Source: a virus
Lineage: Duplodnaviria; Caudoviricetes
DNA length: 25,793 bases
IMG/VR virus record: IMGVR_UViG_3300020045_010257
Coordinates: 1-25,793 of that record
Reading direction: 5' to 3' (one strand)
Position 1 is the stretch's first letter, and each line of letters starts with the position of its first letter. Below, piece after piece: positions 8,496 through 25,793 of the stretch. A model generated the notes under the pieces. It was not told the DNA's origin and ran no database searches. It saw only the letters and a list, made by a program, of their open reading frames with translations. The position numbers and the translations under genes are program-made.

Positions 8496-8749
8496 GGTTG
8501 CGTCCACCTGGTCCATGTAGTTGCGGGTACTGATTCCGGCGTCCAAGAGGTAGCAGTCGCTCCCTGACAAGCGGTCCAGCTGGTCGTGATCGTGTCAAGA
8601 CAAGCGTTCCACGGATCGCCAGAGAGCCAGCCCGTCACGAGTGCCACGCCGTTTGGAGTAATGATCAATGGCGAGTTTAGAGCGACGGCTAGGCCGCCCC
8701 CTGAGAACTGCGAATACCGGTCAAACTTAACGTTCTTAGGCGTTGCTAT
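8492..8749 (-). CDS. 85-aa Trp/Thr-repeat protein with probable ATA start (not in ORF track)
   Basis: Open frame (M)ATPKNVKFDRYSQFSGGGLAVALNSPLIITPNGVALVTGWLSGDPWNACLDTITTSWTACQGATATSWTPESVPATTWTRWTQP*. GAGGAG lies 8 nt before the ATA; the ATA overlaps the glycosyltransferase TAG and the TGA overlaps the adaptor ATG. Confidence 0.65.
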   Translation of the reverse strand: MATPKNVKFDRYSQFSGGGLAVALNSPLIITPNGVALVTGWLSGDPWNACLDTITTSWTACQGATATSWTPESVPATTWTRWTQP

Positions 8750-10956
8750 ATTCCAAACTCCTCTAAGAATTTATCTGCGACTTTCTCCCACGTTGCGGTC
8801 ATCGGAATGTCGACGCGCTCCCATTTGCGATCAATAATTGCGCTAACCAAACGATTAGCCCAAAGCCCCGTCGTTGCGTCGCCTGAAGGGACGTCGGTTT
8901 GCATCATGTCGCACATATCGCGATCGAGTGCGGGCTTCATTGTGTACTTAAGCGCAGCCGTATCTCTAAAGATCGACCAGCAACCGCTGTACATCGCTTC
9001 AAGAGCCGTAATGCAGTAAGTTTCAATAAAATCGTTACAATAGAGCCAAACGCCCGACTCTTTGAAGTGGCGCATGAGTTCTCGCTTAGGCACTTGTCCA
9101 TAATGAGTTACAAAATCATGAGCCTTAATGTGCGATTCGATCTGATCAGCCCAAGCGGCCTGACCACATTTGCGCATGTTCTCAAGGCCATAAAAGCAAT
9201 GGAGCTTTATGTCGAGGCCTGAGACTTCTCTCGCCTTCTTTACGACATTGATCGCCTCAACAAGTCCTCGATCAGGGCTTGACGAGAAAATAACTTTAAG
9301 CGGATCTTTTTTTATCTCACCCTCTGGAAAGTCGTCCGGATTAATGCCATTGAACCCGAGAATAATTTTGTCCTCAGGAATGCCTTGAGTTTCCATAAGG
9401 TAGTTCTTATGAAACTCTGAGAGCGCCATAATTTTAGAATAGTTCTCAGACTTTTCTGCGCCCGGACACTGAAGGTCGTGGCACCAAATAAAGCTTTTAG
9501 CCAGCGTCAGCTTGTGAGCGTGGCGCCAGGCTATGTGCGCCGCAGGCTCAACGTTTTGCACGTAAGGGAGCAAGTCTTGAACCGGCACGTACTCAACGCC
9601 AGAGGGCATCACATCGCGCTTTTGGCGAGTGTTAAAGACCATAACTCTGCGGTCTGGATGCTTTTGCTTTATCCATCGGGCCACCTCAACGGCCGCAGTT
9701 TCCGAGCCGCCGTGGCCCTTCTCCTTAAGCGTATGCTCGTCCCAGTCGGTCACGGCACCACCTGGCGGGCACGTAATCACGATGTCGGTCGTTTTGGGCA
9801 GGCCCTCTCTAACTTTGTTCAAGTCTTGGAGGCGGTTGCACTCATTTAGCAGGTCTTGATATTTGTGGCCCTTACTTTTGAGTAGCTCGATAGTGTCGAG
9901 CGCCTTCGCTGAATCACATTGCGCCAAATAAACTTTCGCCATTTGCGTAAGCGGGTACTCTTCATACGCGTGATCATACGCAACCAAAATCCCGCCCACT
10001 CGATCAGGCGTACAGCTAAGCGCAGTTTTAAGCGCAAAGAGTGCGTTGTTAAAATCGCCCATCGCAATGTAAGTGTCGCCAAGGATGCACCAGAGCTCTG
10101 CGCGAGTCGGAATAAGCCTCAGGCCGTTCATCGCAAGGTCGACCGCTTGCTCATAGGCTTTTGAATGAAACGCTGATTGCGCCGCGTACTGAATGGACAG
10201 CATTCTGTCGTGTACGTGTAAGTTCTTGTCCTTTAGCGCCTCCATGAGCGGGCGCCCAGCCTCGGTCTGCTTGCCGTTCTCGTAAAGCTCTTTCCCATAG
10301 TAGAACTTCATTCGAGACTCTAAATTCTCAAGGCCGTGCTTTTCAAAGAGGCGAATATTGCGCAAGTAGTCTTGCTTAATGTCCTCCTGGCTACGTCTAT
10401 GATTTACCGTCCAAGAGTTTACAGTTTGCGGCCACACTTTCTTAGTCGGGTCTGTTTGCAGCAAGCCCTCGTGAACAAAGTAGTGCCATTTAAAGCCAAA
10501 GTTGTTCTTGATCACGCGCTCTCTAATAAACTCGCAAACGACGTCGCCTTTTTCGTTATAGGCGTAGTTATATTTAGCCGTCCAATAGTGGGCAGCGTGC
10601 ATAACCGTATCGCGCCAATGGATAAACGCTTTCGGGTCAGACAAAACGTCGTCGCCATCTAGCCAGCAAACGTAATCGCTCTTTGCGTGAGAGAATGAGA
10701 AGTTTCGAGCGGCCGAAAAGTCGTCAACCCAATCGAAATTATGAATATTTATGTGAGGTAGCCCGGCCCAATTCGGCTGGCCCTCTTCAATATGTTTATT
10801 AATTATATCTAAAAACTCTAAGGTGTTATCGGTAGAGCCTGTGTCTGTAATATGAATTTCGTCAAAACAGCCCTTAACCGATTGCAGTAGTCCGCCAAGG
10901 TTATGGGCTTCATTTTTCACTATCATGCAGAGTGAAATTGAAGGCCGTGATTGCAC
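8746..10956 (-). CDS. Multidomain glycosyltransferase: N-terminal GT2 (GT-A) + TPR-like repeats + C-terminal GT-B (GT4-like)
   Basis: ISLCMIVKNE, DTGSTD, DFSAARN, WLDGDD, VHE (SunS/flagellin-GT-like GT2); helical TPR-like middle; GGSE, NGI, SSPDRGL, ETYCITALEAM (GT-B). Confidence 0.9.
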   Translation of the reverse strand: MQSRPSISLCMIVKNEAHNLGGLLQSVKGCFDEIHITDTGSTDNTLEFLDIINKHIEEGQPNWAGLPHINIHNFDWVDDFSAARNFSFSHAKSDYVCWLDGDDVLSDPKAFIHWRDTVMHAAHYWTAKYNYAYNEKGDVVCEFIRERVIKNNFGFKWHYFVHEGLLQTDPTKKVWPQTVNSWTVNHRRSQEDIKQDYLRNIRLFEKHGLENLESRMKFYYGKELYENGKQTEAGRPLMEALKDKNLHVHDRMLSIQYAAQSAFHSKAYEQAVDLAMNGLRLIPTRAELWCILGDTYIAMGDFNNALFALKTALSCTPDRVGGILVAYDHAYEEYPLTQMAKVYLAQCDSAKALDTIELLKSKGHKYQDLLNECNRLQDLNKVREGLPKTTDIVITCPPGGAVTDWDEHTLKEKGHGGSETAAVEVARWIKQKHPDRRVMVFNTRQKRDVMPSGVEYVPVQDLLPYVQNVEPAAHIAWRHAHKLTLAKSFIWCHDLQCPGAEKSENYSKIMALSEFHKNYLMETQGIPEDKIILGFNGINPDDFPEGEIKKDPLKVIFSSSPDRGLVEAINVVKKAREVSGLDIKLHCFYGLENMRKCGQAAWADQIESHIKAHDFVTHYGQVPKRELMRHFKESGVWLYCNDFIETYCITALEAMYSGCWSIFRDTAALKYTMKPALDRDMCDMMQTDVPSGDATTGLWANRLVSAIIDRKWERVDIPMTATWEKVADKFLEEFGI

Positions 10957-10968
10957 TTGTTATCCCCC

Positions 10969-11655
10969 TTAGGTCTTTGTTGTTTGCGTTGATGTATCCG
11001 AAATCGTTTTTTCTCTAAGCAAAGTCGATGAGCCGCGGGAGTATACGTCGTAAATCCCGGTGGACTTCGCATAAACCTGATCGCCCTCTTGCACCTCTTG
11101 GACGCGCTTTAAGAACCCAAACACCGTCGTTGGATCAATTGAGGTAGATCCGAAACTAGACGTTGTATCTCCGACAAGTGCGCCAAGAGCACTTGTGGTT
11201 GCGCCGATGGCACCAAGAGTATTTCCAACGCCCGTAAGTGTTGTTCCAATTCCAACAAGAGTGGTTCCTTGAAATCCAAGGCCCGCGAATACTGAAAATC
11301 CATATCCAAGCGATGTACTCCCTTGAGCAAATAGCGAAACGCCCTGAGCCATAAGGCTTGTGCCAATCGCGATCATTGTTGTTCCATATTCATCGGACCT
11401 GTCGACTGGGTCGAGCGCGCCAGAGACATAGCGGCCGTTTGTTCCGGGGCTTGTCGTCGCGGCGTCAGCTAAAAAAACAATCGGCGTCGTCGTTCCCCAC
11501 GAGAAAGAGTAAAAGCCCGTTGCGCCGACCACGTTTGAAATGCCCGGCGGAGTTACCGCGGTCCCGTTGTTGTTGAACGTCAGAAACGTTGGCGCCAACC
11601 CAAAGAACTGTCTCGGGTCGCCTGAGCCGAATTGTAAGTAATAGGTTTTAGCCAT
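10969..11655 (-). CDS. Virion fibre/whisker-like protein with Gly-heptad repeat
   Basis: Beta-rich N-domain, then Gly every 7 residues over an uncharged ~70-aa stretch; Thr/Ser-rich. Confidence 0.5.
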   Translation of the reverse strand: MAKTYYLQFGSGDPRQFFGLAPTFLTFNNNGTAVTPPGISNVVGATGFYSFSWGTTTPIVFLADAATTSPGTNGRYVSGALDPVDRSDEYGTTMIAIGTSLMAQGVSLFAQGSTSLGYGFSVFAGLGFQGTTLVGIGTTLTGVGNTLGAIGATTSALGALVGDTTSSFGSTSIDPTTVFGFLKRVQEVQEGDQVYAKSTGIYDVYSRGSSTLLREKTISDTSTQTTKT

Positions 11656-15898: not shown

Positions 15899-18055
15899 TT
15901 ATCCTTGTGGCGGTATGCCCGCTTGCTCAGGCGGGGCTAGTTGTAGTTCGGGCAACTGTGGTTGATCCTCAGGGAGCGCGTGCATCGGCGCCTGTCCGCT
16001 CGCGAGATTTCCCTCGCCAGATTGGAGGGCCATTTGTTTGGCTTCGTCCTCAGCTTTTTGAGCGGCGTCCGTACCCTTAAGGTTTGGATCGAGATTCGGA
16101 TCGCCGTCAGCTGAGCCAGTTAGCTCGCTAATCCATTGCGCGTGCTCGTTGATTAGCTCAAGCAACGCTCTTTGTTGGTCTGGCGTTAGCTTTTCGTACT
16201 TTTCAGATATGCGGTAATCGTCGAGCTCTTGCATCCAAAGCGCGTGGTCATCAAACTCCGAAACCGGCGGCTTAATGCCTTGCTCGAGCATTCTAATGCC
16301 GCGGTTGATTTGCGATTTTCTAAGGCTAATTTTTTTCCAGCCTTGATATTCGTCGCCATACTCGAGCATGGACAAGACGTTTTGCAGTACTAGCGGGTCT
16401 TGCGGATTACCGAAATACCCCTGCTGGTTCAGGTTCATAATCTCTTGGCGCTTTAGCACTTTAGAGCCAGGCAGTGTCGAGCCTCTGATTACGTGAACGT
16501 CAAAGTTTTGGCGAATATCGGTCCCGCTAAACTTCCTAACGGTGTATTCCATGTTTTCGCCCACGGTTTTTAGCAGGCGTTCGGTTTCATAAAATTTGTC
16601 TACGAATTTAAGAAGTATTCGACCAAGATCAGCGTAAGAATACTCGTGACCTTCAGTTTCGATTCCAATGCGCGTATCGTCTTGCTCGACGAGTAACTGC
16701 ATACCAATTGCAGGAATGCTAGAGCTAGGCAGCTGTCCACGAGAGGCCTGATTAATTCCAGCCGTATCATTCATGTCCTCTTTGAGTGTGTTTTCCTCTT
16801 CATAGGCGTATTGCGGAATATTAGGCATTTGCAGCGCGTGAGGCTCTGGCACGTTTGGCAAGTGGTCGTACTTGATCATTTCGCCCGACTGATCGTTAAA
16901 CGCTTCGGCCGCGATATTGTGCCCACGAGCCGCAAGGATTTTGCCGGTGAGCATTCGGTTTGACCAAGCTGCGCGCATTTGTTTGCCGCGGTTAATCTGG
17001 TCTTGCAGCGGGCGGAGGTGCGTAATTATCGCCTCGCTTGAGAACTTTCCGCCAACCACGATGTCGTCAAACTTCACGAAAGGAATCTCGTCAATCGGCA
17101 AGATATCGTCTTTAAGCTTTACGCCGTTTGCGGTGATTAGATGGCGCCCGTACGGGTGTTTATTGCTCGGCCGCTCGTAGTAGCTAATCTCAATTGCTGA
17201 GTCTTTTAGCTGAGTGGCGGGACTTCCAGCTGTACCGGTTGTCGTATTGATTGAGTTAATGCGCGACTCATACGCCAGAGAATTTAGCCAGCAGTCCTCT
17301 TCTTTAACCAAGTGACCGTTATCGGGAAAGTGGTCACGAAAATAATCGAGCTTTTTAATTTTCGCTTGGATCAGCGTTTGGTTATCGTCCCAGCCTTTGG
17401 CGTAAGGGTCTGGGAAAATCTCAAAGAACGAGCAAACGTCAACGCGTATATCGCCCTCTGCCACAATCTTGTATTCGCCCTTGCCGGTCTCCTCGTTCAT
17501 GACCGGCATAACTCGTTTCTCGCCGGCCGTCTCATCCCAAGAAACTTTAAAATAAGAAATTCCGCACTGCTGTAGCCACATCGTTAGCGAAATACGCTTG
17601 CGGTTGATGTGCAGTTGGTCCCAAAGCTGAATGATCACTTGCTCGGCCAAGCGGGCAGCGTCTTTGTCTTTTTCGTCACCACTGCGCGGCCGAACGTCCC
17701 ACCTAGGCGGGTTTTTTAAGAGTCGTGCCAGTCTATTTTGGACTGTAGGTAGAATGCGATTAACATGGACGCGGTTACGCTTGAGGAACTGAGAAGGGCT
17801 AGGAACAGAGCGGAACTGTCGACTAGTGCCATCAAAATAAACTGAATCAAAGCCGCACAGGTAAGCAATATTAGTGAGATTGATTCCCTCTTGAGCGGTC
17901 CTGGCACTGGTCTGCCTTCTTTCGTCAAGTTTTTGCCGAACGTAAGCAACGATTGCCTTATCCTCAGCCGATTGCTCGTCGGCAGAGTTTGGCGCGAGAG
18001 GGTTTCCACTCGCCTTCGCAAACAATCTTTCTCTAGCTCTGTCTAAAAGACTCAA
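15899..18055 (-). CDS. Portal protein (P22-like)
   Basis: 718 aa; N.I.P.V, D..AA, PLQD.IN, D.AGIN.ASRG motifs; Q/P-rich tail; position between terminase and scaffold; TTG start. Confidence 0.85.
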   Translation of the reverse strand: MSLLDRARERLFAKASGNPLAPNSADEQSAEDKAIVAYVRQKLDERRQTSARTAQEGINLTNIAYLCGFDSVYFDGTSRQFRSVPSPSQFLKRNRVHVNRILPTVQNRLARLLKNPPRWDVRPRSGDEKDKDAARLAEQVIIQLWDQLHINRKRISLTMWLQQCGISYFKVSWDETAGEKRVMPVMNEETGKGEYKIVAEGDIRVDVCSFFEIFPDPYAKGWDDNQTLIQAKIKKLDYFRDHFPDNGHLVKEEDCWLNSLAYESRINSINTTTGTAGSPATQLKDSAIEISYYERPSNKHPYGRHLITANGVKLKDDILPIDEIPFVKFDDIVVGGKFSSEAIITHLRPLQDQINRGKQMRAAWSNRMLTGKILAARGHNIAAEAFNDQSGEMIKYDHLPNVPEPHALQMPNIPQYAYEEENTLKEDMNDTAGINQASRGQLPSSSIPAIGMQLLVEQDDTRIGIETEGHEYSYADLGRILLKFVDKFYETERLLKTVGENMEYTVRKFSGTDIRQNFDVHVIRGSTLPGSKVLKRQEIMNLNQQGYFGNPQDPLVLQNVLSMLEYGDEYQGWKKISLRKSQINRGIRMLEQGIKPPVSEFDDHALWMQELDDYRISEKYEKLTPDQQRALLELINEHAQWISELTGSADGDPNLDPNLKGTDAAQKAEDEAKQMALQSGEGNLASGQAPMHALPEDQPQLPELQLAPPEQAGIPPQG

Positions 18056-18319: not shown

Positions 18320-18837
18320 TTTACTTTCGACTCCCCAAACAACTTTTGCTCGACCGTCATCTTTGAGCGGAGTTTTGCCGCCTCGTATGTCTGCGGGAAA
18401 TGAACCTTAATGTCCTTGTACATAAAAAAGCCGTGCGACTCTGCGTAGTCCTTGCCGCAGTAGTAGCAAATGATTTCAGGCTGAGCGTCGATCGAGTCGC
18501 AACCAAGGCGCTTGGCTACAGACACTTGCTGATCAAGTTCGTTTAGCGTTTTGGCGGCTCGGTATTCGCCGTCCACATGCTCGCGCAAGTGCTCTAGGTT
18601 CACTTTTTCTTTAGTGAGGGGCTTTGCAATGTCGGGATCGATGTCAGGAATGGGCGACTCTAAGGCCATGCGCTCAAGCTCGCGCTCAAGCGCTAGGTCC
18701 TCTTCAGTGATGGCGGTTGGCGCTACGTCCTCGCGCCAGCTGGGGTCGACTGGTTTAGCGTCGGCTAAGTTAAACATGGGGTTAGCGTCGTCAACCGGAG
18801 GCTTAACCTTGTTCTTGGCACCTTTAGTTCTCGCCAT
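18316..18837 (-). CDS. Hypothetical protein with N-terminal RTKGAKNK basic motif (173 aa)
   Basis: SD AAGGA; 14-nt overlap with the TerL-nuclease gene. Confidence 0.65.
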   Translation of the reverse strand: MARTKGAKNKVKPPVDDANPMFNLADAKPVDPSWREDVAPTAITEEDLALERELERMALESPIPDIDPDIAKPLTKEKVNLEHLREHVDGEYRAAKTLNELDQQVSVAKRLGCDSIDAQPEIICYYCGKDYAESHGFFMYKDIKVHFPQTYEAAKLRSKMTVEQKLFGESKVK

Positions 18838-19639
18838 CTTGATTTCCTTTCATCAATTGGTTTTTGATAAACCATTTCTCGTAATCTTTATGATTAGGAG
18901 ACGGGGGCTTTAAATTTTGCTTTTCTGGTTCTGGTGGAAACGAAAACTCTTCAATACTTGAGAGCGCATCGAGAATGTCGACATATGTTCCGCGCGGGAA
19001 CTTGTTGTACTCATCCTCAAAGTCAGTGAGCCCGCGCTTTATCTGAATGCCCGCCCACTCAAAACGTGGAACGAGCGAGCGAATGCGCATGTTTTTAGAC
19101 TTATCCGGCCCGCGATTTACAGCGTGAACAGGAACGGTTTTCTTGCGCTTTCTCATTTCGTCTTGAATGAAGTGCATGAGCGCTTGCTGATAAGCGACCG
19201 TCTCAATGCCAATAACGCTACAGCCGTAAATGTCTTGAACGTCAAATATGAGCTTTACGGTTTGCGTGGCGGTTATTTTTAGGCGTCTTGCGACCTTGAG
19301 ATACCACATATTGTTTACGTCAACGTCGACAATGGCTAGCGCTGTGTAGCACGCGGCTTGGTCGAGGCTGATCGCTGGATCAATCATCGCGAACGTGTGT
19401 TTTATTCTCGGGAGCTCATCGTAATAAACGAGCCACTCGCGCTTAAAGTCCTGGTCGTCGCCTGGAATAATTTCGTTTTGATATTGGTGCGCGAAAATGT
19501 ACGAGCCTTGAATTTTGCGCTGGCGAGTTAAATACTCGCGAGAGAGCTTTTTAGGAAACAAAAGCGAGCCGTCGTCGCGGATTGCTTTATCATACGCGCA
19601 CGCCCATTTTTCGCCGTCCACTACCTTCTCGAAGTACAT
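18824..19639 (-). CDS. terL: Terminase large subunit, C-terminal linker + RNase H-like nuclease domain (stand-alone gene, 271 aa)
   Basis: LFP...G.YIF..QYQN, IDPAIS, IGIETVAYQ, K..RI..L.P, FP.G..DILDAL. Start re-called at ATG 19639 (TAATG overlap with the upstream stop). Confidence 0.88.
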   Translation of the reverse strand: MYFEKVVDGEKWACAYDKAIRDDGSLLFPKKLSREYLTRQRKIQGSYIFAHQYQNEIIPGDDQDFKREWLVYYDELPRIKHTFAMIDPAISLDQAACYTALAIVDVDVNNMWYLKVARRLKITATQTVKLIFDVQDIYGCSVIGIETVAYQQALMHFIQDEMRKRKKTVPVHAVNRGPDKSKNMRIRSLVPRFEWAGIQIKRGLTDFEDEYNKFPRGTYVDILDALSSIEEFSFPPEPEKQNLKPPSPNHKDYEKWFIKNQLMKGNQDGEN

Positions 19640-19881
19640 TAGAACCACCGCCAAAACTGCCACCACTTTTTGGCGACTGGTCGAACGATAACTAGGCTTG
19701 GCTTTTTGCCATAGTTCTCAGCTATTCGCTGATAGAGCTTGAAGTAGTTCGCGGCGTCGAAACACGGCCCGTCAGGCTTAAGCAAATACTCTTGTACCTC
19801 GACAAACACGAACTCGTTATGCTCAACGGGATAGCGGTTACAAAACTTGGTCTCAGCTTTTACGATTGCGTAATAGCTCAT
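19639..19881 (-). CDS. Hypothetical protein (80 aa) with KKWWQFW amphipathic C-terminus
   Basis: ATGA coupling upstream and TAATG coupling downstream. Confidence 0.65.
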   Translation of the reverse strand: MSYYAIVKAETKFCNRYPVEHNEFVFVEVQEYLLKPDGPCFDAANYFKLYQRIAENYGKKPSLVIVRPVAKKWWQFWRWF

Positions 19882-20669
19882 GAGCCCATCCTTTTAACGC
19901 CAAGGAATGGTCTCGGCCCGTCGCCAGTGGCCGCAGCGCCCTCTATATAAAGCCCGCTCGCTGCGAATTTGCCGCTTGCGCCAGAGGTTGTGATTGTCAT
20001 ATTAGAGCCAGAGCCGTTTTTGGTGTCGGCGAGAGTAGGTGCGGTGTCTGAGTGATCCATGCGCCACCAGTTGGTACAGTTCGCATAAGCAGAGTGCGCG
20101 GCCAAGTTTCCTGGAATGCCGCCGTTGTAGAGTTCGGCCCGCTCTCCGCTAGAGAGCACCTTGTTCCACAGACTATAGTTGTTCCAGGCGCCCGCTGCCG
20201 TTTTGTCCGCGGTTGGGGTTGCGGGGTTATTGCTGCCGACCAACAACACCTGATCAGCGGTGTGCAAAGGCACCGCGCCGCCAGACCACGGCAAAACCTC
20301 TGTCAGCGTTTGGAGTACGTTGTTCACGTAGCAGGCGAAAACGCCAGACGCGAACGTGACCATGACGTGCTTCCATGTGTCTGTAAATATCGCGGTTGCC
20401 GTCGTATGAAGTGAAAAGTTGGTGCCATTCCAAGAGAATATTAGTCTAAACGTTCCGCTGGTCTGAATGGAGAACAGCCAACAGCGGTCGTTTCCGGTCT
20501 CCTCCCACATTCCCCATACGTCTTTGTTTGTTCCGGGAATGCAGCAAAGCCACATGCTCCATGTGATGTTGTCGTAGTATTTGTACGAAGCATTGTCAGC
20601 GGTCACGGCGTAACCTCTTGACGTATCATTCGTATCGCGGCCATAAAAGCTGCCCGTACTAAAAGCCAA
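19878..20669 (-). CDS. LamG / concanavalin A-like lectin-fold protein, likely virion-associated
   Basis: T.SMW, WKHV.VTF, YVN.V, WNKVLS..E...LYN.G, WWRMD motifs of LamG-like jellyrolls; TTG start. Confidence 0.8.
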   Translation of the reverse strand: MAFSTGSFYGRDTNDTSRGYAVTADNASYKYYDNITWSMWLCCIPGTNKDVWGMWEETGNDRCWLFSIQTSGTFRLIFSWNGTNFSLHTTATAIFTDTWKHVMVTFASGVFACYVNNVLQTLTEVLPWSGGAVPLHTADQVLLVGSNNPATPTADKTAAGAWNNYSLWNKVLSSGERAELYNGGIPGNLAAHSAYANCTNWWRMDHSDTAPTLADTKNGSGSNMTITTSGASGKFAASGLYIEGAAATGDGPRPFLGVKRMGS

Positions 20670-20684
20670 ATACCACCCTAACGC

Positions 20685-20990
20685 CTAACCAGGCGAGCTT
20701 GAGTATCCGTAGCTATAGCCAAATTCGATTGCGGCGATTGACGTGGATCCTGCCGCAGCCAAAAAGAAAACTGACGGGCCGTTAAAGCTTTGAACTTCAG
20801 ACGTGCCAAGTATCCAGCCCTGGGCCGCGGTAAAGCCTCTGCGATCAACGACGGCTAACGTGCCACCAGACGAGTACTTAAAGGAAACGGCCTTAGCAAA
20901 AGGGGGTGGGATAATAGGAGTGGCGGTCGCGCCCGTCGCCACTGCCACTAAAGTTACGCCAACGCCGTAGATTAATTCGTTTGCGGACAT
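20685..20990 (-). CDS. Small beta-rich S/T/G/A protein (101 aa, start MSANEL), possible virion accessory protein
   Basis: Start re-called at ATG 20990 behind AAGGCGG; composition resembles the other accessory structural proteins. Confidence 0.6.
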   Translation of the reverse strand: MSANELIYGVGVTLVAVATGATATPIIPPPFAKAVSFKYSSGGTLAVVDRRGFTAAQGWILGTSEVQSFNGPSVFFLAAAGSTSIAAIEFGYSYGYSSSPG

Positions 20991-21037
20991 CAATAACCGC
21001 CTTATTAAATTTTTGAATTTTCGCGCACGCAACTTAG

Positions 21038-21083
21038 AGGGTATGAGCGCCAGACAGTTACTAAAACGGTAACTTGAAGTTAC
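21038..21083 (-). promoter_or_regulatory. Putative activator-dependent late promoter, copy 1
   Basis: Inverted repeat GTAACTT-C-AAGTTAC (21069-21083, minus-strand reading), third GTAAC box (21057-21061), and TACCCT (-10-like) 25 nt after the palindrome. Confidence 0.6.
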
Positions 21084-21086
21084 TTA

Positions 21087-21803
21087 TTAAAGGCCTAGGC
21101 TGTCCTCTGTGCTAACGAGTCCAGGCGTGGTCATTTCTAGCTTTCCCTCAGCCAGTTTCTTCTCAGCTAAGATGTCGTTTAAGAAAAACCCGATCACGTC
21201 GCGCTCGGCGTATCTGGTGCCGATTAATAAATATTCGCCGCCAGGGTTTAGAATGTTGAGGTTGTATCTGACGTGATCGATAACCTTTTGGCACTTCTCA
21301 GGCGTTTCAGAGTTTTGCGGACTATTATAGTCATCGCCAATAATTAGGTCGTAATGCTGACCAACCCGCGTGGTGCCGAGCCCTCCGGCCGTAATGCTAG
21401 CCTCTTTGCGGTTAGCCGTTCGCGATTTAATAATAACCTCGCCCTCGTCCCACTTGCCGCCGACCTGACTGCCAAAGAGTTCGGCTATTCGCTCGCCCTG
21501 TAAGTGCCCTTTGATTTCGCGAATAAAGTTTTTAGAGTTCGAATAAAGCTCCGAATCAAGCAAAATAGTAAGGTTCGGATCACGTAAAAGACGCCAAATA
21601 GGATAAGAGACAGAACCAAGAGTGCTCTTAAAAGTACCTCGCGGCATAACAACGATTTTTCGAGGAGCTTCGCTTTCAAAGACATTGATAAATTGCCCAT
21701 GCACATCCTTATCTAAGTCCTTATAGCCAAGAAACTCTTTACTAAAATAAAAGAAATCATCAAGGCACCGGCACTGTTCTTTATATAAATCTTGCGGGCT
21801 CAT
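21087..21803 (-). CDS. terL: Terminase large subunit, N-terminal ATPase domain (stand-alone gene, 238 aa)
   Basis: Walker A PRGTFKST, Walker B YDLIIGDD, coupling motif IGTRY; ends with tandem TAA TAA; ATGA-coupled to terS. Confidence 0.9.
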   Translation of the reverse strand: MSPQDLYKEQCRCLDDFFYFSKEFLGYKDLDKDVHGQFINVFESEAPRKIVVMPRGTFKSTLGSVSYPIWRLLRDPNLTILLDSELYSNSKNFIREIKGHLQGERIAELFGSQVGGKWDEGEVIIKSRTANRKEASITAGGLGTTRVGQHYDLIIGDDYNSPQNSETPEKCQKVIDHVRYNLNILNPGGEYLLIGTRYAERDVIGFFLNDILAEKKLAEGKLEMTTPGLVSTEDSLGL

Positions 21804-22120
21804 TTCTTTGCGCGCTTTGCTCTGTCCTCGACAACCATTTGATGAATCGTAGCGCGGTCCTCAGCCGACAGCAGTGCTGTGGATCCAGCGCCATCTGCGA
21901 GGCCCTCGATTGCTTTGCGCTTTGGGAACACGTACTGCGCTATTCGCTCAAACTTGTCGAATTGCTTATCCTGATCGGTTTCGCGCATTGCGATCATGAC
22001 CATGCCCTCGAAGGGGTTACAGCCGTGCTTTTCGCAAATCGCCATCAAGTCTTGCGTTGGCTTATTCGGCGTGCCCTTTTTGCGTCCGCCATAGCGAGGA
22101 TGTCCCTTCGGTGCGCCCAC
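21800..22120 (-). CDS. terS: Terminase small subunit (putative)
   Basis: GGRKKGTPNK N-terminal motif and A.Y.FPKRKAIE motif; directly upstream of the TerL ATPase gene. Confidence 0.7.
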   Translation of the reverse strand: MGAPKGHPRYGGRKKGTPNKPTQDLMAICEKHGCNPFEGMVMIAMRETDQDKQFDKFERIAQYVFPKRKAIEGLADGAGSTALLSAEDRATIHQMVVEDRAKRAKK

Positions 22121-22290
22121 TAATCTTTAATCCTGACGCCAAGGCTCTCTAGATCGCTAATCACCTGCTCGGCGCGCGCTCTGAGGCCTGGAAGTCTTGA
22201 GGGGAGCGCATAGTCTAGGGTTTGCGAAAGCTCAAGCACGATGGCCCAAACTTCGTCTGTGATTTTTTGTATCTTTATTGGCTTTTCCAT
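22120..22290 (-). CDS. 56-aa hypothetical protein (not in ORF track)
   Basis: MEKPIKIQKITDEVWAIVLELSQTLDYALPSRLPGLRARAEQVISDLESLGVRIKD*; its TAG overlaps the GTG of terS. Confidence 0.6.
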   Translation of the reverse strand: MEKPIKIQKITDEVWAIVLELSQTLDYALPSRLPGLRARAEQVISDLESLGVRIKD

Positions 22291-22310
22291 TTGCTCACTT
22301 TTAAAAAGGC

Positions 22311-22376
22311 GCGGGAGCTCGGGATTACCCGTGCTTTAGCGGCCAGCCCACCAAACATCCAATCAAGGTGCCCCGC
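22311..22376 (-). other. Structured 5' leader / candidate small RNA
   Basis: Closing stem GCGGG/CCCGC enclosing hairpins CACC..GGUG, GC-UAAA-GC and CGGG-UAAU-CCCG; followed by GCC-UUUUU. Confidence 0.4.
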
Positions 22377-22384
22377 ATGAATAA

Positions 22385-22430
22385 AGGCTAAGCGGCGGTA
22401 TGCGGTAACAAAAGAGTAACTTTAAGTTAC
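22385..22430 (-). promoter_or_regulatory. Putative activator-dependent late promoter, copy 2
   Basis: GTAACTT-A-AAGTTAC (22416-22430, minus-strand reading), third GTTAC box (22405-22409), and TAGCCT 25 nt after the palindrome, matching copy 1. Confidence 0.6.
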
Positions 22431-22432
22431 TT

Positions 22433-22460
22433 TTGACGGGCTTAAGTAATTAGCTAGAAT
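22433..22460 (+). promoter_or_regulatory. Sigma70-type promoter for the RHH gene (probably leaderless transcript)
   Basis: TTGACG-16 nt-TAGAAT; the ATG begins at the 7th nt after the -10 hexamer; no SD. Confidence 0.65.
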
Positions 22461-22466
22461 GAATAC

Positions 22467-22673
22467 ATGAAAATTGAATTCGACATAGATTTAAGCGAAC
22501 TCGATCAGCCAGAACTTAACGACGGGCAAGTGACCGTAAAACTCCCAAAGGCAATTGGGGAGCAATTTAAGATATTGAACATCAAACACAACAAGCAGCT
22601 GAGCAAGTACATGCGCAAGTTTGCACTCACGCTGATCACTAAAATCGAGTCGCGCGACAAGAGCGCGTCCTAG
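22467..22673 (+). CDS. Putative ribbon-helix-helix (Arc/CopG-like) DNA-binding protein
   Basis: QVTVKLP strand followed by two helices (KAIGEQFKIL..., LSKYMRKFALTLI); flanked by GTWAC boxes. Confidence 0.55.
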   Translation: MKIEFDIDLSELDQPELNDGQVTVKLPKAIGEQFKILNIKHNKQLSKYMRKFALTLITKIESRDKSAS

Positions 22674-22738
22674 TTACTTTTAAGTTAACCGAGAACTAGC
22701 CTATATTTTAAGCTTAAGACTCTTTAGCGTTTGAGTTA

Positions 22739-23485
22739 GTGAGCCTTAAGCGATCGCTAATCATACCTGACACGCATCGCCCTTTTCACAATCGAAAAGC
22801 TTACGCGCTAATGATCGAGGCCGCGCTTTATTTTGGCGTGCATGAAATCGTTATTCTTGGCGATTACGCGGACTTTTACTCGGTCTCCCGGCACCAAAAG
22901 CATCCCATGGTCGATACTCTGTTAACGACAGAGGTGGAGTCGGTAAGGGAGGGGCTGGACGAGTTAGACCGCCTTTTTCCTCAAGCCAAGAAAGTGTTCC
23001 TTGAAGGGAATCATGAGAAACGGCTAGAGACATATCTTGTTGAGAAGGCACCTGAGTTGTTTGGTGTAACTGAGGTTCAGTTTCTTTTTGGGTTGAATCA
23101 GAGACCGCTTTGGTCGTTTCAGGAGTTCGGTCGCAACCAGGCTTACTCGGTACTAGGTACGAACCTATACGCCTTTCATCGTCCAAAGGCGTCAGCGCCA
23201 AAGACCCACCTCCAGCGGGTAATGGTGAACTCCGTGTACGGCGACATTCACAAGATTGAGCGGGCCCACGCGGTTGGGCTTGACGGAAAACACTACTTGG
23301 CCCTTTGTCCCGGTTGGCTTGGAGATGTAGGGTCTCGGGTGTTTGACTATATGGCGAGCGTTCCACAATGGCAGCTAGGTTTCGCAATAGCTTCGCTAGA
23401 AACGTCATCGAATGAATATTTCATAGACACGTTTGAAATCAAGAACAATCGCGCACTCGTATATGGAAAGCTGTTTAGCGCATGA
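22739..23485 (+). CDS. Calcineurin-like metallophosphoesterase
   Basis: PDTH, LGDYAD, EGNHE, FH and GDIH (GHxH-like) metal-binding motifs; W..GF C-terminal motif of phage members. Confidence 0.85.
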   Translation: MSLKRSLIIPDTHRPFHNRKAYALMIEAALYFGVHEIVILGDYADFYSVSRHQKHPMVDTLLTTEVESVREGLDELDRLFPQAKKVFLEGNHEKRLETYLVEKAPELFGVTEVQFLFGLNQRPLWSFQEFGRNQAYSVLGTNLYAFHRPKASAPKTHLQRVMVNSVYGDIHKIERAHAVGLDGKHYLALCPGWLGDVGSRVFDYMASVPQWQLGFAIASLETSSNEYFIDTFEIKNNRALVYGKLFSA

Positions 23486-23702
23486 CGAAGAAAGACCTGC
23501 GCAAAGTTTGCGACGCCACGCTGTTCGACGCGGGCGACGTGACGTGGGAAGTAGAAGAGACCAAACGCAATACTCAAATTAAGATACTACTCAAGTCTGA
23601 ATCGCGCTTTAACTTGGTCAAATTTACCTAAGCCTTCAAATGATAGTCGAAAAGCTAGAAGGCCACCTGGGCGTTATGAGTGAGACCGAGGGCGAGCACT
23701 AG
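23482..23702 (+). pseudogene. Small gene with an apparent 1-nt frameshift (about 73 aa if restored)
   Basis: ATGA-coupled start; frame 1 gives 49 aa ending at 23631; the -1 frame continues QIYLSLQMIVEKLEGHLGVMSETEGEH* to a TAG overlapping the convergent GT2 stop. Confidence 0.45.
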
Positions 23703-24418
23703 CCCCACTTAGCGTCAAACCTACGCTTGCTCTCTTCCCGGTTAGCCGCGCTAAACGTTTGCTCTGAGCTCACGCCGCCAAAGTGATAAACGATTGCGTT
23801 ATAGGCTATGGCGTTTAAGTAGCCCTTTTGCCCGATACGAAGCGTGTAGTCGATATCGTCTTGGCCAATGAGCGACTCGTCAAACGGGCCTACCTCGTTA
23901 TACATTTTGCGCGAGATTAAAAACGCGTAAATGCAAAGTGTGCTGTGATAACTCAAAGCAAGCGGGTACGGGCTTTCCATATTCATTAAGCGCTCGGGCT
24001 CGTCTACCTCATCGAGTCGCATGGGTCCCGGCCTGGTACCCACCAGCGCCGCGTACCTGTTCTGCTGGTCGTTTGAGATTGGCATGAGAAGGCCAATGCG
24101 TGGCACGTGAGCGTAGGTCTCAACAAGAGCTTTAAGCGAATTGCGGGTCAGTACCGTGTCGTCGTTGATCACGAACAGATATTCGCCCGTTGATTTCGCG
24201 ATGCCATAGTTTAAGCCCACTGGCGGCCAGAACTTTACCTCGTTTGGCGTGACTGTTCTTACGCCCTCATACCTGGGTAAGTAATCTTTGCGGCCCACGA
24301 TGATAATTTCTAGGTCGCTCGCCGGGTAATCGAGGTTCTTTACCGACTGGACGCATAGGTCGAGGTATGGTTTAGACTTCTCGAAATAGCTCGTAATGAT
24401 AACGCTTACTTTTGGCAT
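23699..24418 (-). CDS. Glycosyltransferase family 2 (GT-A)
   Basis: KVSVIITSY, GLNYG, GEYLFVINDD, VGPFDE, DDIDYTLR, VYHFGG motifs. Confidence 0.9.
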   Translation of the reverse strand: MPKVSVIITSYFEKSKPYLDLCVQSVKNLDYPASDLEIIIVGRKDYLPRYEGVRTVTPNEVKFWPPVGLNYGIAKSTGEYLFVINDDTVLTRNSLKALVETYAHVPRIGLLMPISNDQQNRYAALVGTRPGPMRLDEVDEPERLMNMESPYPLALSYHSTLCIYAFLISRKMYNEVGPFDESLIGQDDIDYTLRIGQKGYLNAIAYNAIVYHFGGVSSEQTFSAANREESKRRFDAKWG

Positions 24419-25137
24419 CGCTTCCCCTCAAATACGATTGTGTCGTCCGTGTGGCAAACCCAGTCATAACCCTTAAACATTTTAACCAAGATCAAGTGAA
24501 GCTCATTTGGTGTATATGTGCGCAAATGCCCAAGCGGGTTATCGCGCCAAAATCTCATTCCGCCACCGTAAGTGTAAAGCGGTGTTGAGATTAGAATAAC
24601 GTCAGCCGTGCGCTTGAACTTGAGATAGTTTTGATAAATCTCCCACTCGTTAGCCAGGTGCTCGATCAATTCAAACGCTACAAAGATATTAAACTCTGGC
24701 TTATCTGGCTTAGCGAAACAGTGCTCACCCTCGTCAAGCGACAGACACTCGTAAGTGAATTGGCGATGCTTATGCACTAGCCCTTGCGGTAGCCAAAGCG
24801 AGCCGCCGGCCAACTCCATAACGTTTGGCGTGACGCCCTTCGCGTTTAGCTCTTTAACGATACTTTCTGTCACCTTAGCTCTAAGCGGCCAATGGTTCTC
24901 GGTGTCCTGAGGCGTAATCTCTAGGCCCTCGTAGATGCCCTTATACTGAACCGGCGTAAAGAGCTGGCGATGAAGGCTTGCGCGTATTTCCGCGGCCCGC
25001 TCCGGCACGTGCTCTCTGTAAAACGCTGGCATGTTATCGAGCATGAGAAACGCGCGCTCGACTTCGTCAGATTGGATGAGCATTTCGCAGGCGCTTAAGT
25101 AAACGTCAACGTCAAAGAATAGCGGCTTGCCGATCAC
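24406..25137 (-). CDS. Class I SAM-methyltransferase-fold protein, paralog B (degenerate motif I)
   Basis: VMELAGGS, FELIEHL, LISTP, GHLRTYT. Start re-called at GTG 25137 (GTGA overlap, SD GGGGGAG). Confidence 0.7.
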   Translation of the reverse strand: MIGKPLFFDVDVYLSACEMLIQSDEVERAFLMLDNMPAFYREHVPERAAEIRASLHRQLFTPVQYKGIYEGLEITPQDTENHWPLRAKVTESIVKELNAKGVTPNVMELAGGSLWLPQGLVHKHRQFTYECLSLDEGEHCFAKPDKPEFNIFVAFELIEHLANEWEIYQNYLKFKRTADVILISTPLYTYGGGMRFWRDNPLGHLRTYTPNELHLILVKMFKGYDWVCHTDDTIVFEGKRCQK

Positions 25138-25793
25138 TTCTCCCCCACAATCACCATTGAGTGCGCATCGTAGAGCGTCCACTTGTAGCCAGGAAAGCTC
25201 TCGTCAGCGAACCGCGTGAATTCTCTGGGCGTCCATGTTCTCACGTGGCCAAGCCTTCTCGTATCCCAATTCTCTAAGCCTCCGCCAAGCGTGTATTTCG
25301 GCACCGATAAGAGAATGTGGTCAAAGTTAACGCCAACCTTTTTCGCTGAGTGGACAATATCGTGAGGGTTAAAACAGTGCTCAATTACTTCGGTGCAGTA
25401 AAGGATTGTTGATTGGCCGCTTACAGGCTTATCGGCCCAGCGGTGGCCAACCCACTCTTTAACTTTAGATTGAATGCGGTAGTTCATTCCAACGCCCTTA
25501 TACTTAAACGGAATCGCTTCCTTGATAAGCCCAAGCGGTAAATTCCCGTGCGAGCAACCGAGGTCAAATATCCACGGCGTTAACAGCTTACTCACGAGCT
25601 CTTTCACAATTGCGGCCCGCGGATACATATAGCCATTATCCCACTGCGCCTCGCCAAACTCACGCGAGCATTCCGCTTCCTCATCGTCGGTCGCGTACTC
25701 AATCTGGTCGTACGTTTGCTGGTAGAGTTTATTCTTTATAGCTTGAAGCTCCGGCGGGTAGTTATCGCGGTAATATCCGGGCACCTCGTCGCA
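25134..25793 (-). CDS. Class I SAM-dependent methyltransferase, paralog A (5'-truncated by the window)
   Basis: IFDLGCSHG, TEVIEH, LLSVP, GHVRTWT; the frame stays open to the window edge. Confidence 0.78.
   Translation of the reverse strand, partial: CDEVPGYYRDNYPPELQAIKNKLYQQTYDQIEYATDDEEAECSREFGEAQWDNGYMYPRAAIVKELVSKLLTPWIFDLGCSHGNLPLGLIKEAIPFKYKGVGMNYRIQSKVKEWVGHRWADKPVSGQSTILYCTEVIEHCFNPHDIVHSAKKVGVNFDHILLSVPKYTLGGGLENWDTRRLGHVRTWTPREFTRFADESFPGYKWTLYDAHSMVIVGEK

Follow-up and report, generated by a model that had tools for sequence, protein, structure and literature searches.

The window analysed here, a stretch of 25,793 nucleotides, corresponds to the whole linear record (25.8 kb, about 67% complete) of a virus of the class Caudoviricetes, IMGVR_UViG_3300020045_010257. 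On its minus strand the large terminase subunit (TerL) is encoded by two genes, called here TerL-N and TerL-C, and the gap of 1447 bp between them holds three other genes of the same orientation. In a clade of related viruses TerL is split in two at one fixed position, and the enzyme is likely a 1:1 two-chain protein whose second chain is predicted to complete the ATPase fold. The genes of the locus are, in the order in which they are read:

21087..21803, minus strand: TerL-N, 238 aa, 26.9 kDa; ATPase core lacking its last strand and the lid, with a variable C-terminal tail
20685..20990, minus strand: jelly-roll gene, 101 aa; family resident in the gap
19878..20669, minus strand: LamG/concanavalin-like gene, 263 aa (PF13385, E 1.3e-9); variable cargo
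19639..19881, minus strand: 80-aa gene, the stop of which overlaps the TerL-C start (TAATG)
18824..19639, minus strand: TerL-C, 271 aa, 31.8 kDa, the ATG of which overlaps the TAA of the 80-aa gene

TerL-N displays the motifs PRGTFKS (residues 54-60), LIIGDD (153-158) and GTR (195-197), and stops at a tandem TAA TAA 41 residues past GTR. TerL-C comprises the last strand of the ATPase core (residues 11-17), the lid (about 28-57), a linker and an RNase H-fold nuclease (D87, E146, D221/D224). TerL-N covers positions 269-464 of phrog_38 (E 2.5e-30) and TerL-C positions 461-715. On a profile built from one-chain relatives (489 positions), they correspond to 5-222 and 226-468, respectively, and are the only two matches in the record. 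Judged from these alignments, the halves are complementary and would rejoin with almost no loss. An original prediction, made from the letters of the window alone, had described these coordinates, motifs and sizes, the TAATG start and the complementarity; open reading frame (ORF) and profile matches confirm all of them, both halves falling at complementary positions of the two profiles. An intact TerL elsewhere, which would have contradicted that prediction, was not detected with the one-chain profile in this record, itself about two-thirds complete. Seventeen columns are invariant among 45 TerL-N sequences, including P54, R55, G56, K59, D157, D158, T196 and R197, and the same holds among 43 TerL-C sequences for D87, E146, D221, D224, Q52, Y53 and N55. 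The hallmarks of a large terminase that can be read from sequence are found distributed over two genes: ATPase motifs on the N gene, lid and acidic nuclease residues on the C gene, and packaging-module neighbours around them.

The family is remote from well-known terminases. Neither half is recognised by Pfam, and no Protein Data Bank (PDB) sequence matched the TerL-C profile. The closest PDB relatives by sequence are the T7-type terminases (E 1e-8 with the N profile, E 1e-14 with the one-chain profile). These T7-type enzymes (T7 gp19, 4BIJ; PhiV-1, 8DGC; NF033889) are the closest solved relatives and share the same motif order, as a single polypeptide in their case; the model of a one-chain relative superposes on 8DGC with Z 25.8 and a root-mean-square deviation (rmsd) of 8.3 over 423 aligned residues. 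The NF033889 cut-off of 150 bits is reached neither by the halves (70.2 and 20.3 bits) nor even by the one-chain relative P0021 (108). No cultured phage is close, the best identities being 36% and 33%. On the host side, clade members occur in prokaryote genomes only on contigs of metagenome-assembled genomes that look misbinned (L125, L126).

Four scans of viral contigs, one scan of prokaryote genomes and phage records gave 130 loci, which after merging of duplicates leave 50 entries with separate halves (window included), 24 one-chain entries and 26 with one part only. Removal of the near-copies L023, L028 and L085 (of L022 and L027), and of MW202554.1, which has another break point, brings the clade to 46 loci including the window. 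The same break is found in the 45 other distinct loci, in line with the original prediction, which had looked to related contigs for the same split. Gap length varies between 224 and 8689 bp, all three phases occur, and ORFs of the same strand make up 96% of the gaps. The sequences of the 46 distinct loci thus show TerL as a pair of separate ORFs, both under selection and both having a start and a stop of their own. Selection on the two halves is purifying, not the relaxed selection that would have spoken against the prediction: pairwise dN/dS is 0.05-0.17 for TerL-N (7 unsaturated of 49 pairs) and 0-0.11 for TerL-C (6 unsaturated of 85 pairs), with 0.096 for the window against L009. For one-chain genes it is 0.04-0.10 in 16 of the 17 unsaturated pairs (of 29), the remaining, near-identical pair giving 0.52.

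In metagenomes, the best 80 of 164 matches include 64 N genes that stop shortly past GTR (one of them a frameshifted version of a one-chain gene), 12 one-chain genes with an N score of at most 241 bits and 4 genes cut by contig ends; many of these matches coincide with the viral contigs. Of 120 long proteins related to the N half, the 19 best-scoring ones are N genes with an in-cis intein and no C part, and the other 101 are one-chain proteins scoring at most 238 bits. The 46 long relatives of the C half divide into 6 C genes with an in-cis intein and 40 one-chain proteins. Full in-cis inteins were observed in the standalone N genes P0001-P0019 and L063, at two sites, and in P0121-P0126 among the long C relatives, at a site of the C gene near the last catalytic Asp. 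These inteins inside standalone N and C genes suggest that both have long been essential, translated genes. MW202426.1 is one chain, and the unannotated KY888885.1 matches P0021 in one piece. L197, considered as a gap-less split, was rejected as a one-base frameshift copy of the one-chain P0028. PHROGs also contains two terminase families of half length, phrog_4758 (243 positions) and phrog_5573 (250 positions), which match the N and C halves; the latter begins near the TerL-C start, which hints at another split lineage in that collection.

The large terminase has been described as one chain, in which the ATPase domain consists of the ASCE fold plus a lid; the lid caps the active site and contributes to hydrolysis and ring contacts, and the movement and cutting of DNA are coupled to ATP hydrolysis through lid and linker (PMC5727402, PMC5389665). 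The position of the cut was mapped on the AlphaFold model of the one-chain relative P0021 (predicted local distance difference test score, pLDDT, 88.7), which shows a helix at 210-217, a strand at 222-226, two helices at 244-254 and 256-264 and the first nuclease strand at 299-305. TerL-N aligns to P0021 up to residue 210 and TerL-C to 228-452, with Trp12 of TerL-C on P0021 residue 222; in the one-chain relatives only a few residues separate the helix following GTR from the next strand. Superposed on the one-chain model, the ATPase domain structures of T4 and P74-26 cover residues 1-268 (2O0H, Z 20.0, rmsd 2.9, 231 aligned; 4ZNI, Z 19.5, rmsd 2.9, 217 aligned), and nuclease domain structures cover it from 268-272 onwards. 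Since the ATPase domain extends to 268 and the break maps to about 218-221, TerL-C is predicted to carry the last core strand and the lid. The cut would therefore fall within the ATPase domain, some 50 residues from its end, in the short loop that leads into the last core strand, and not at the linker between ATPase and nuclease. The original prediction of an ATPase gene and a nuclease gene is thus upheld as regards two separate genes, and has to be amended as regards their content. An N chain devoid of the last strand and of the lid is likely to be an incomplete ATPase, and the two chains are therefore likely to be needed 1:1.

A model of the TerL-N and TerL-C complex scored 0.92, the best of three controls reaching 0.00. 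The mark used was reached by 116 of 157 solved pairs and 2 of 215 mismatched ones, the runs agreed on at least 89% of contacts, and the partners had pLDDT of at least 79. In the best-defined contacts, residues 11-17 of TerL-C pair with residues 46-52 of TerL-N, the Walker A strand, and the modelled interface is limited to residues 1-60 of TerL-C, with no nuclease residue. In a five-member subclade including the window, a motif in the N tail and a 10-residue C leader co-occur, both within the modelled interface (N 217-224, C 1-7); as interface evidence this co-occurrence, a single evolutionary event, is suggestive only. Both chains would be translated from one late operon, with TerL-C often coupled to the preceding gene; its start lies at most 10 nt from the upstream stop in 35 of 46 loci and overlaps it in 22. 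TerL-C would then supply the last core strand, paired with the Walker A strand, together with the lid of the ATP site, the linker and the nuclease, and the chains would lock by strand complementation into one protomer. The two-chain protomer would finally form the usual ring on the portal, as other terminases do.

Several features flank the TerL genes:

15899..18055, minus strand: portal protein (PF16510, E 4.8e-22)
21069..21083, no strand: palindrome copy 1, 15 bp, 3 bases past the TAA TAA of TerL-N
21800..22120, minus strand: TerS-like gene, 106 aa, overlapping the TerL-N start by 4 bases
22416..22430, no strand: palindrome copy 2, 2 bases before a sigma-70-like -35 box
22467..22673, plus strand: 68-aa ORF with weak ribbon-helix-helix (RHH) likeness

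The product of 21800..22120 is likely the terminase small subunit, a label suggested by its place, a homologue lying about 0.7 kb upstream of TerL-N in the relative locus L002; its sole PHROG match is phrog_15261, of unknown function. TerL-C is followed downstream by two small genes, then by portal, major capsid and adaptor genes (library matches), and the portal lies at most 2.5 kb downstream of TerL-C in all 34 loci with enough sequence.

Could the two halves nevertheless end up as one chain? The gap might be an intron, of group I or II or of a new kind, carrying genes as cargo and removed by splicing. Spliced split terL genes are indeed documented in the Jug phages, where terL consists of two or three ORFs, with introns detected and splicing shown by RNA reads (PMC12880540), and the rejoining of the halves with almost no loss, as well as the presence of a Shine-Dalgarno-like word at only 7 of 46 TerL-C starts, would agree with it. 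In contrast to the Jug phages, the window has no detected intron and its second ORF keeps its own start. Rfam searches, covering the window and 15 loci, detected no intron, whether at gathering level (window and 8 loci), at E≤1 (7 loci with short gaps) or at E≤5 (18500-22800 of the window). Moreover, 28 of the 46 gaps lack any non-coding stretch as long as 50 nt, 9 of them being coding throughout, and no base is conserved at either junction beyond codon constraint (46 loci). The RNA folds at the two junctions are unremarkable (z -0.47 and -1.70). All 46 loci keep a TerL-C start codon (ATG in 29, TTG in 11, GTG in 6) no more than 14 codons away from the conserved Trp, where 12.4 loci would be expected from background. 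A scan of gap proteins dealt with 130 of 244 tiled ORFs, leaving out the jelly-roll members, the window's own and most ORFs below 80 aa; it gave one HNH protein and no reverse transcriptase, recombinase or intein. Within the window, Pfam and PHROG found no homing endonuclease gene between the halves. An intron is accordingly very improbable. Protein trans-splicing by a split intein, as in fractured genes, has a precedent in a terminase with an atypically split intein (PMC2677866), and the terminase family does host inteins. The TerL-C leader, however, with 1-11 residues before the conserved Trp, leaves no room for a C-intein; the TerL-N tails are short (4-37 residues), unconserved and contain Cys in only 4 of 46 loci; the conserved gap protein is predicted to fold as a jelly roll; and the known inteins stand in cis at other sites. 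Religation of this kind deserves next to no credence. Removal of the gap by DNA excision or ribosomal hopping could be imagined from the existence of P0127, a one-chain relative with a short linker; gene-filled gaps of up to 8.7 kb in all three phases, the lack of a recombinase among the 130 gap proteins and the lack of shared junction bases make it extremely improbable. As for a decaying pseudogene or a misassembly, the window is a single metagenomic contig, but misassembly is implausible because the same split recurs in 45 independent loci on other contigs, and purifying selection and invariant catalytic residues oppose decay, so that this explanation is practically negligible. The Rfam, gap protein and junction analyses agree with the original prediction of a two-chain terminase whose break holds neither an intron nor a homing endonuclease or an intein. 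The comparison drawn there was with UL15 of herpes simplex virus 1.

A different proposal is that of an autonomous ATPase and an autonomous nuclease, their amounts or timing set separately by a promoter in the gap, and the original prediction had indeed placed a putative promoter after the ATPase stop. What can be said for it is that a 96-bp non-coding stretch follows TerL-N in the window and holds an operator-like palindrome, shared with the promoter region of the possible RHH gene, and that TerL-C starts with TTG or GTG in 17 of 46 loci. The palindrome at 21069-21083 is perfect, its copy at 22416-22430 has identical arms, and two copies were reached in 0 of 100 shuffles. They are the only sites of the window with perfect arms of at least 7 and a spacer of at most 3; they bracket the TerS-TerL-N block, and extra half-sites lie at 21056 and 22672. 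A sigma-70-like TTGACG-16-TAGAAT (22433-22460, 10 of 12 matches) precedes the 68-aa ORF, which has Atlas feature matches of 0.92-0.93, including RHH_1 clusters, structure scores under the bar, and no NCBIfam, Pfam or PHROG match. This ORF is possibly an RHH regulator binding both palindromes, which is a lead only; the palindromes may be an operator in this genome, or a packaging or recombination site, and local regulation of the genes downstream of TerL-N is possible in this genome. In the TerL gap of the window itself, a scan called no sigma-70 promoter, and the palindrome is what lies at the predicted place. Nor does a promoter after the ATPase stop appear to be a clade feature, because 37 of 46 loci have a first gap ORF (first possible start codon used) that overlaps the TerL-N stop or begins at most 22 nt past it; the palindrome was seen in 1 of 39 loci, the window itself. 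TerL-C is predicted to hold the last core strand and the lid, and the lid matters for hydrolysis and ring contacts (PMC5389665, PMC5727402). Autonomous domains are thus quite improbable, and expression of the nuclease at its own level or time, as first suggested, is not supported, the two chains being likely needed 1:1.

The gap itself has a characteristic resident. The three genes in the window had been called unrelated; they are indeed three same-strand genes, but the family of the 101-aa gene recurs in 42 of 46 gaps. In two sets of one-chain loci this jelly-roll family of about 100 aa was not seen (0 of 24 and 0 of 12). The gene is often present twice per gap and frequently sits immediately upstream of a long fibre-like gene; three of the shortest gaps (320-327 bp) contain no other gene. 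The 101-aa protein is modelled as an eight-stranded jelly roll (pLDDT 89), with the PM2 spike P1 as best structure match (Z 8.5, rmsd 3.2, 88 aligned), tied with Clp1 and cupin domains (Z 8.1-8.2). Its nearest named Atlas clusters, at 0.86 and 0.83 (PRD1_P5_spike_N in 32% of members), are leads only. No PDB sequence matched the family, only 2 of 55 members have PHROG matches (E about 0.009), and there is no Hint fold among the listed structure matches. From its model, the protein is a candidate virion spike or fibre base. Because it is present in most gaps, the jelly-roll gene is suggested to be the founding insertion: there would have been one old fission, probably by insertion of this gene of about 100 aa into a length-tolerant loop, after which the gap would have become an insertion site for fibre-like and glycosylation genes.

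The other gap genes vary. The LamG protein of the window, a singleton among the gap proteins, is likely a sugar-binding fibre domain, and the 80-aa gene has no Pfam, PHROG or NCBIfam match and a homologue in the same place in L009 (59% identity). Named gap proteins of the relatives include glycosyltransferases, methyltransferases, a sugar epimerase and fibre-type domains. Glycosyltransferase- or methyltransferase-like genes are also seen elsewhere in the window, at 8746-10956, 23699-24418, 24406-25182 and 25134-25784, with one large GT2-TPR-GT1 gene among the virion genes; the frequent presence of similar genes in the TerL gap of relatives suggests a moving virion-glycosylation module. A second recurring gap family, of 105-204 aa, is the last gene before TerL-C in 13 of 46 loci (L015, L022, L029, L035, L040, L043, L050, L057, L061, L082, L087, L088 and L089). 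The close relatives L002 and L003 have a different gene of about 100 aa after TerL-N (L002:4910-5218, L003:1832-2134), missed by the jelly-roll profile. The gap of L047 (about 10608-11553) is the sole one with 1 kb of opposite-strand ORFs, directly after TerL-N. An HNH-AP2 endonuclease gene, the only one found in any gap, lies directly before TerL-C at L069:7396-7890 and is probably a late arrival.

The split of the terminase is real and ancient, and a functional two-chain enzyme is the likely reading of these data; several points weigh against this reading in its simple form. One is P0127, a single protein sequence of 508 aa in the European Nucleotide Archive (ENA), from a 2.1-kb contig, which scores as a clade member and is nonetheless a continuous polypeptide, some 13 linker residues bridging the place of the break. 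It is the fifth of the ten best matches in a full HMMER search, the other nine having C-only length or being C with an intein. In trees without P0127, the split rows form one side of a branch (45 versus 47 rows and 46 versus 47 rows, with Shimodaira-Hasegawa-like approximate likelihood ratio test (SH-aLRT) values of 99 and 100, respectively). Free trees with P0127 place it nested among the split rows, but a single clade of split rows passes the approximately unbiased (AU) test when P0127 is included (p 0.73 and 0.77). By its sequence, P0127 would be either a re-fusion or a sister that keeps the old one-chain state, and a single fission, never reversed, is not established. The N and C distances correlate (Spearman 0.48, 0 of 2000 permutations); the N and C trees agree on the nearest neighbour in only 24 of 45 rows. 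The trees are quick searches (LG+G4, SH-aLRT only, no bootstrap), with L063, which has an intein in N, left out of the N tree and L122 left out of the later ones. The dN/dS of TerL-N is slightly above one-chain values, on few pairs and stop-to-stop ORFs. The complex model should be taken as a fit and not as binding, split-gene halves tending to pass by likeness to solved one-chain terminases. Four of the 46 gaps have no detectable jelly-roll gene, which is thus not required there and leaves its founder role a guess. Finally, the evidence consists of sequences and models.

A two-gene TerL is in itself already known. In KellEzio, a phage of Arthrobacter cluster AT (KU647626, gp4 and gp10), TerL is annotated, as here, in two same-strand genes with ordinary genes between them, in its case 5 genes over 1.8 kb; both match phrog_38 and the lid goes with the nuclease gene. 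The two-gene TerL of this cultured, plaque-forming phage is the subject of one sentence in PMC5513430, which gives neither mechanism nor test. In contrast to the window, where the cut precedes the last core strand, the N gene of KellEzio appears to keep that strand (phrog_38 to 470). KellEzio is remote from the window clade (31 and 15.5 bits on the one-chain profile), and its split is likely an independent event. The podovirus MW202554.1 (Manatee Spring; L123:3902-6439) also has TerL in two genes matching phrog_38, with a 62-aa gene between them. It differs in being cut after the lid, at the true nuclease start (phrog_38 254-513 and 547-719), with an intein-like insert in the lid of the N gene; by its break point, this split is an independent event. 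Outside terminases, nrdA of phage Aeh1 is split by mobE, so that the pieces of an essential enzyme come from two co-oriented genes on either side of a third, and NrdA is reported to be two-chain with no ligation (PMC2677866). Such fractured genes differ from the present case in that the middle gene is a homing endonuclease gene and most have split inteins, the window having neither. A three-CDS (coding sequence) terminase of Twort is mentioned in PMC13729910, and the available parts of PMC7824862 and PMC11476376 contain nothing on the present split arrangement. A literature search whose scope excluded most subscription journals and supplements found neither a study devoted to these viruses nor one on a terminase cut within its ATPase.

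Why the split persists can be seen in two ways. The simplest is neutral persistence of a tolerated cut, P0127 suggesting that the one-chain form is still possible. Alternatively, the fission could be adaptive. The terminase is the trigger of the defence systems Avs1-3 and Upx; for Avs2 the ATPase part is enough, SeAvs3 binds to the nuclease as well, and in a model of Upx core strands are threaded out of the ATPase (PMC13601566). With no complete ATPase until the chains meet, the split might act both as an assembly switch and as an evasion of the Avs2, Upx and Avs3 sensors, a proposal that we consider unlikely. Its boldest form would make the jelly-roll protein of the gap a third partner of the packaging machine.

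Because the backbone is cut inside the ATPase domain, covalent continuity between ATPase core and lid is apparently not needed in a large natural clade. Nature offers three cut points, before the last strand in this clade, after it in KellEzio and after the lid in MW202554.1. The clade offers a ready two-part reagent for asking whether the lid acts in cis or in trans and how nuclease and ATPase are coupled. In practical terms, TerL-based trees and completeness checks will mis-handle phages with a split TerL. The split also makes the defence question testable, the terminase being the trigger that Avs1-3 and Upx recognise (PMC13601566).

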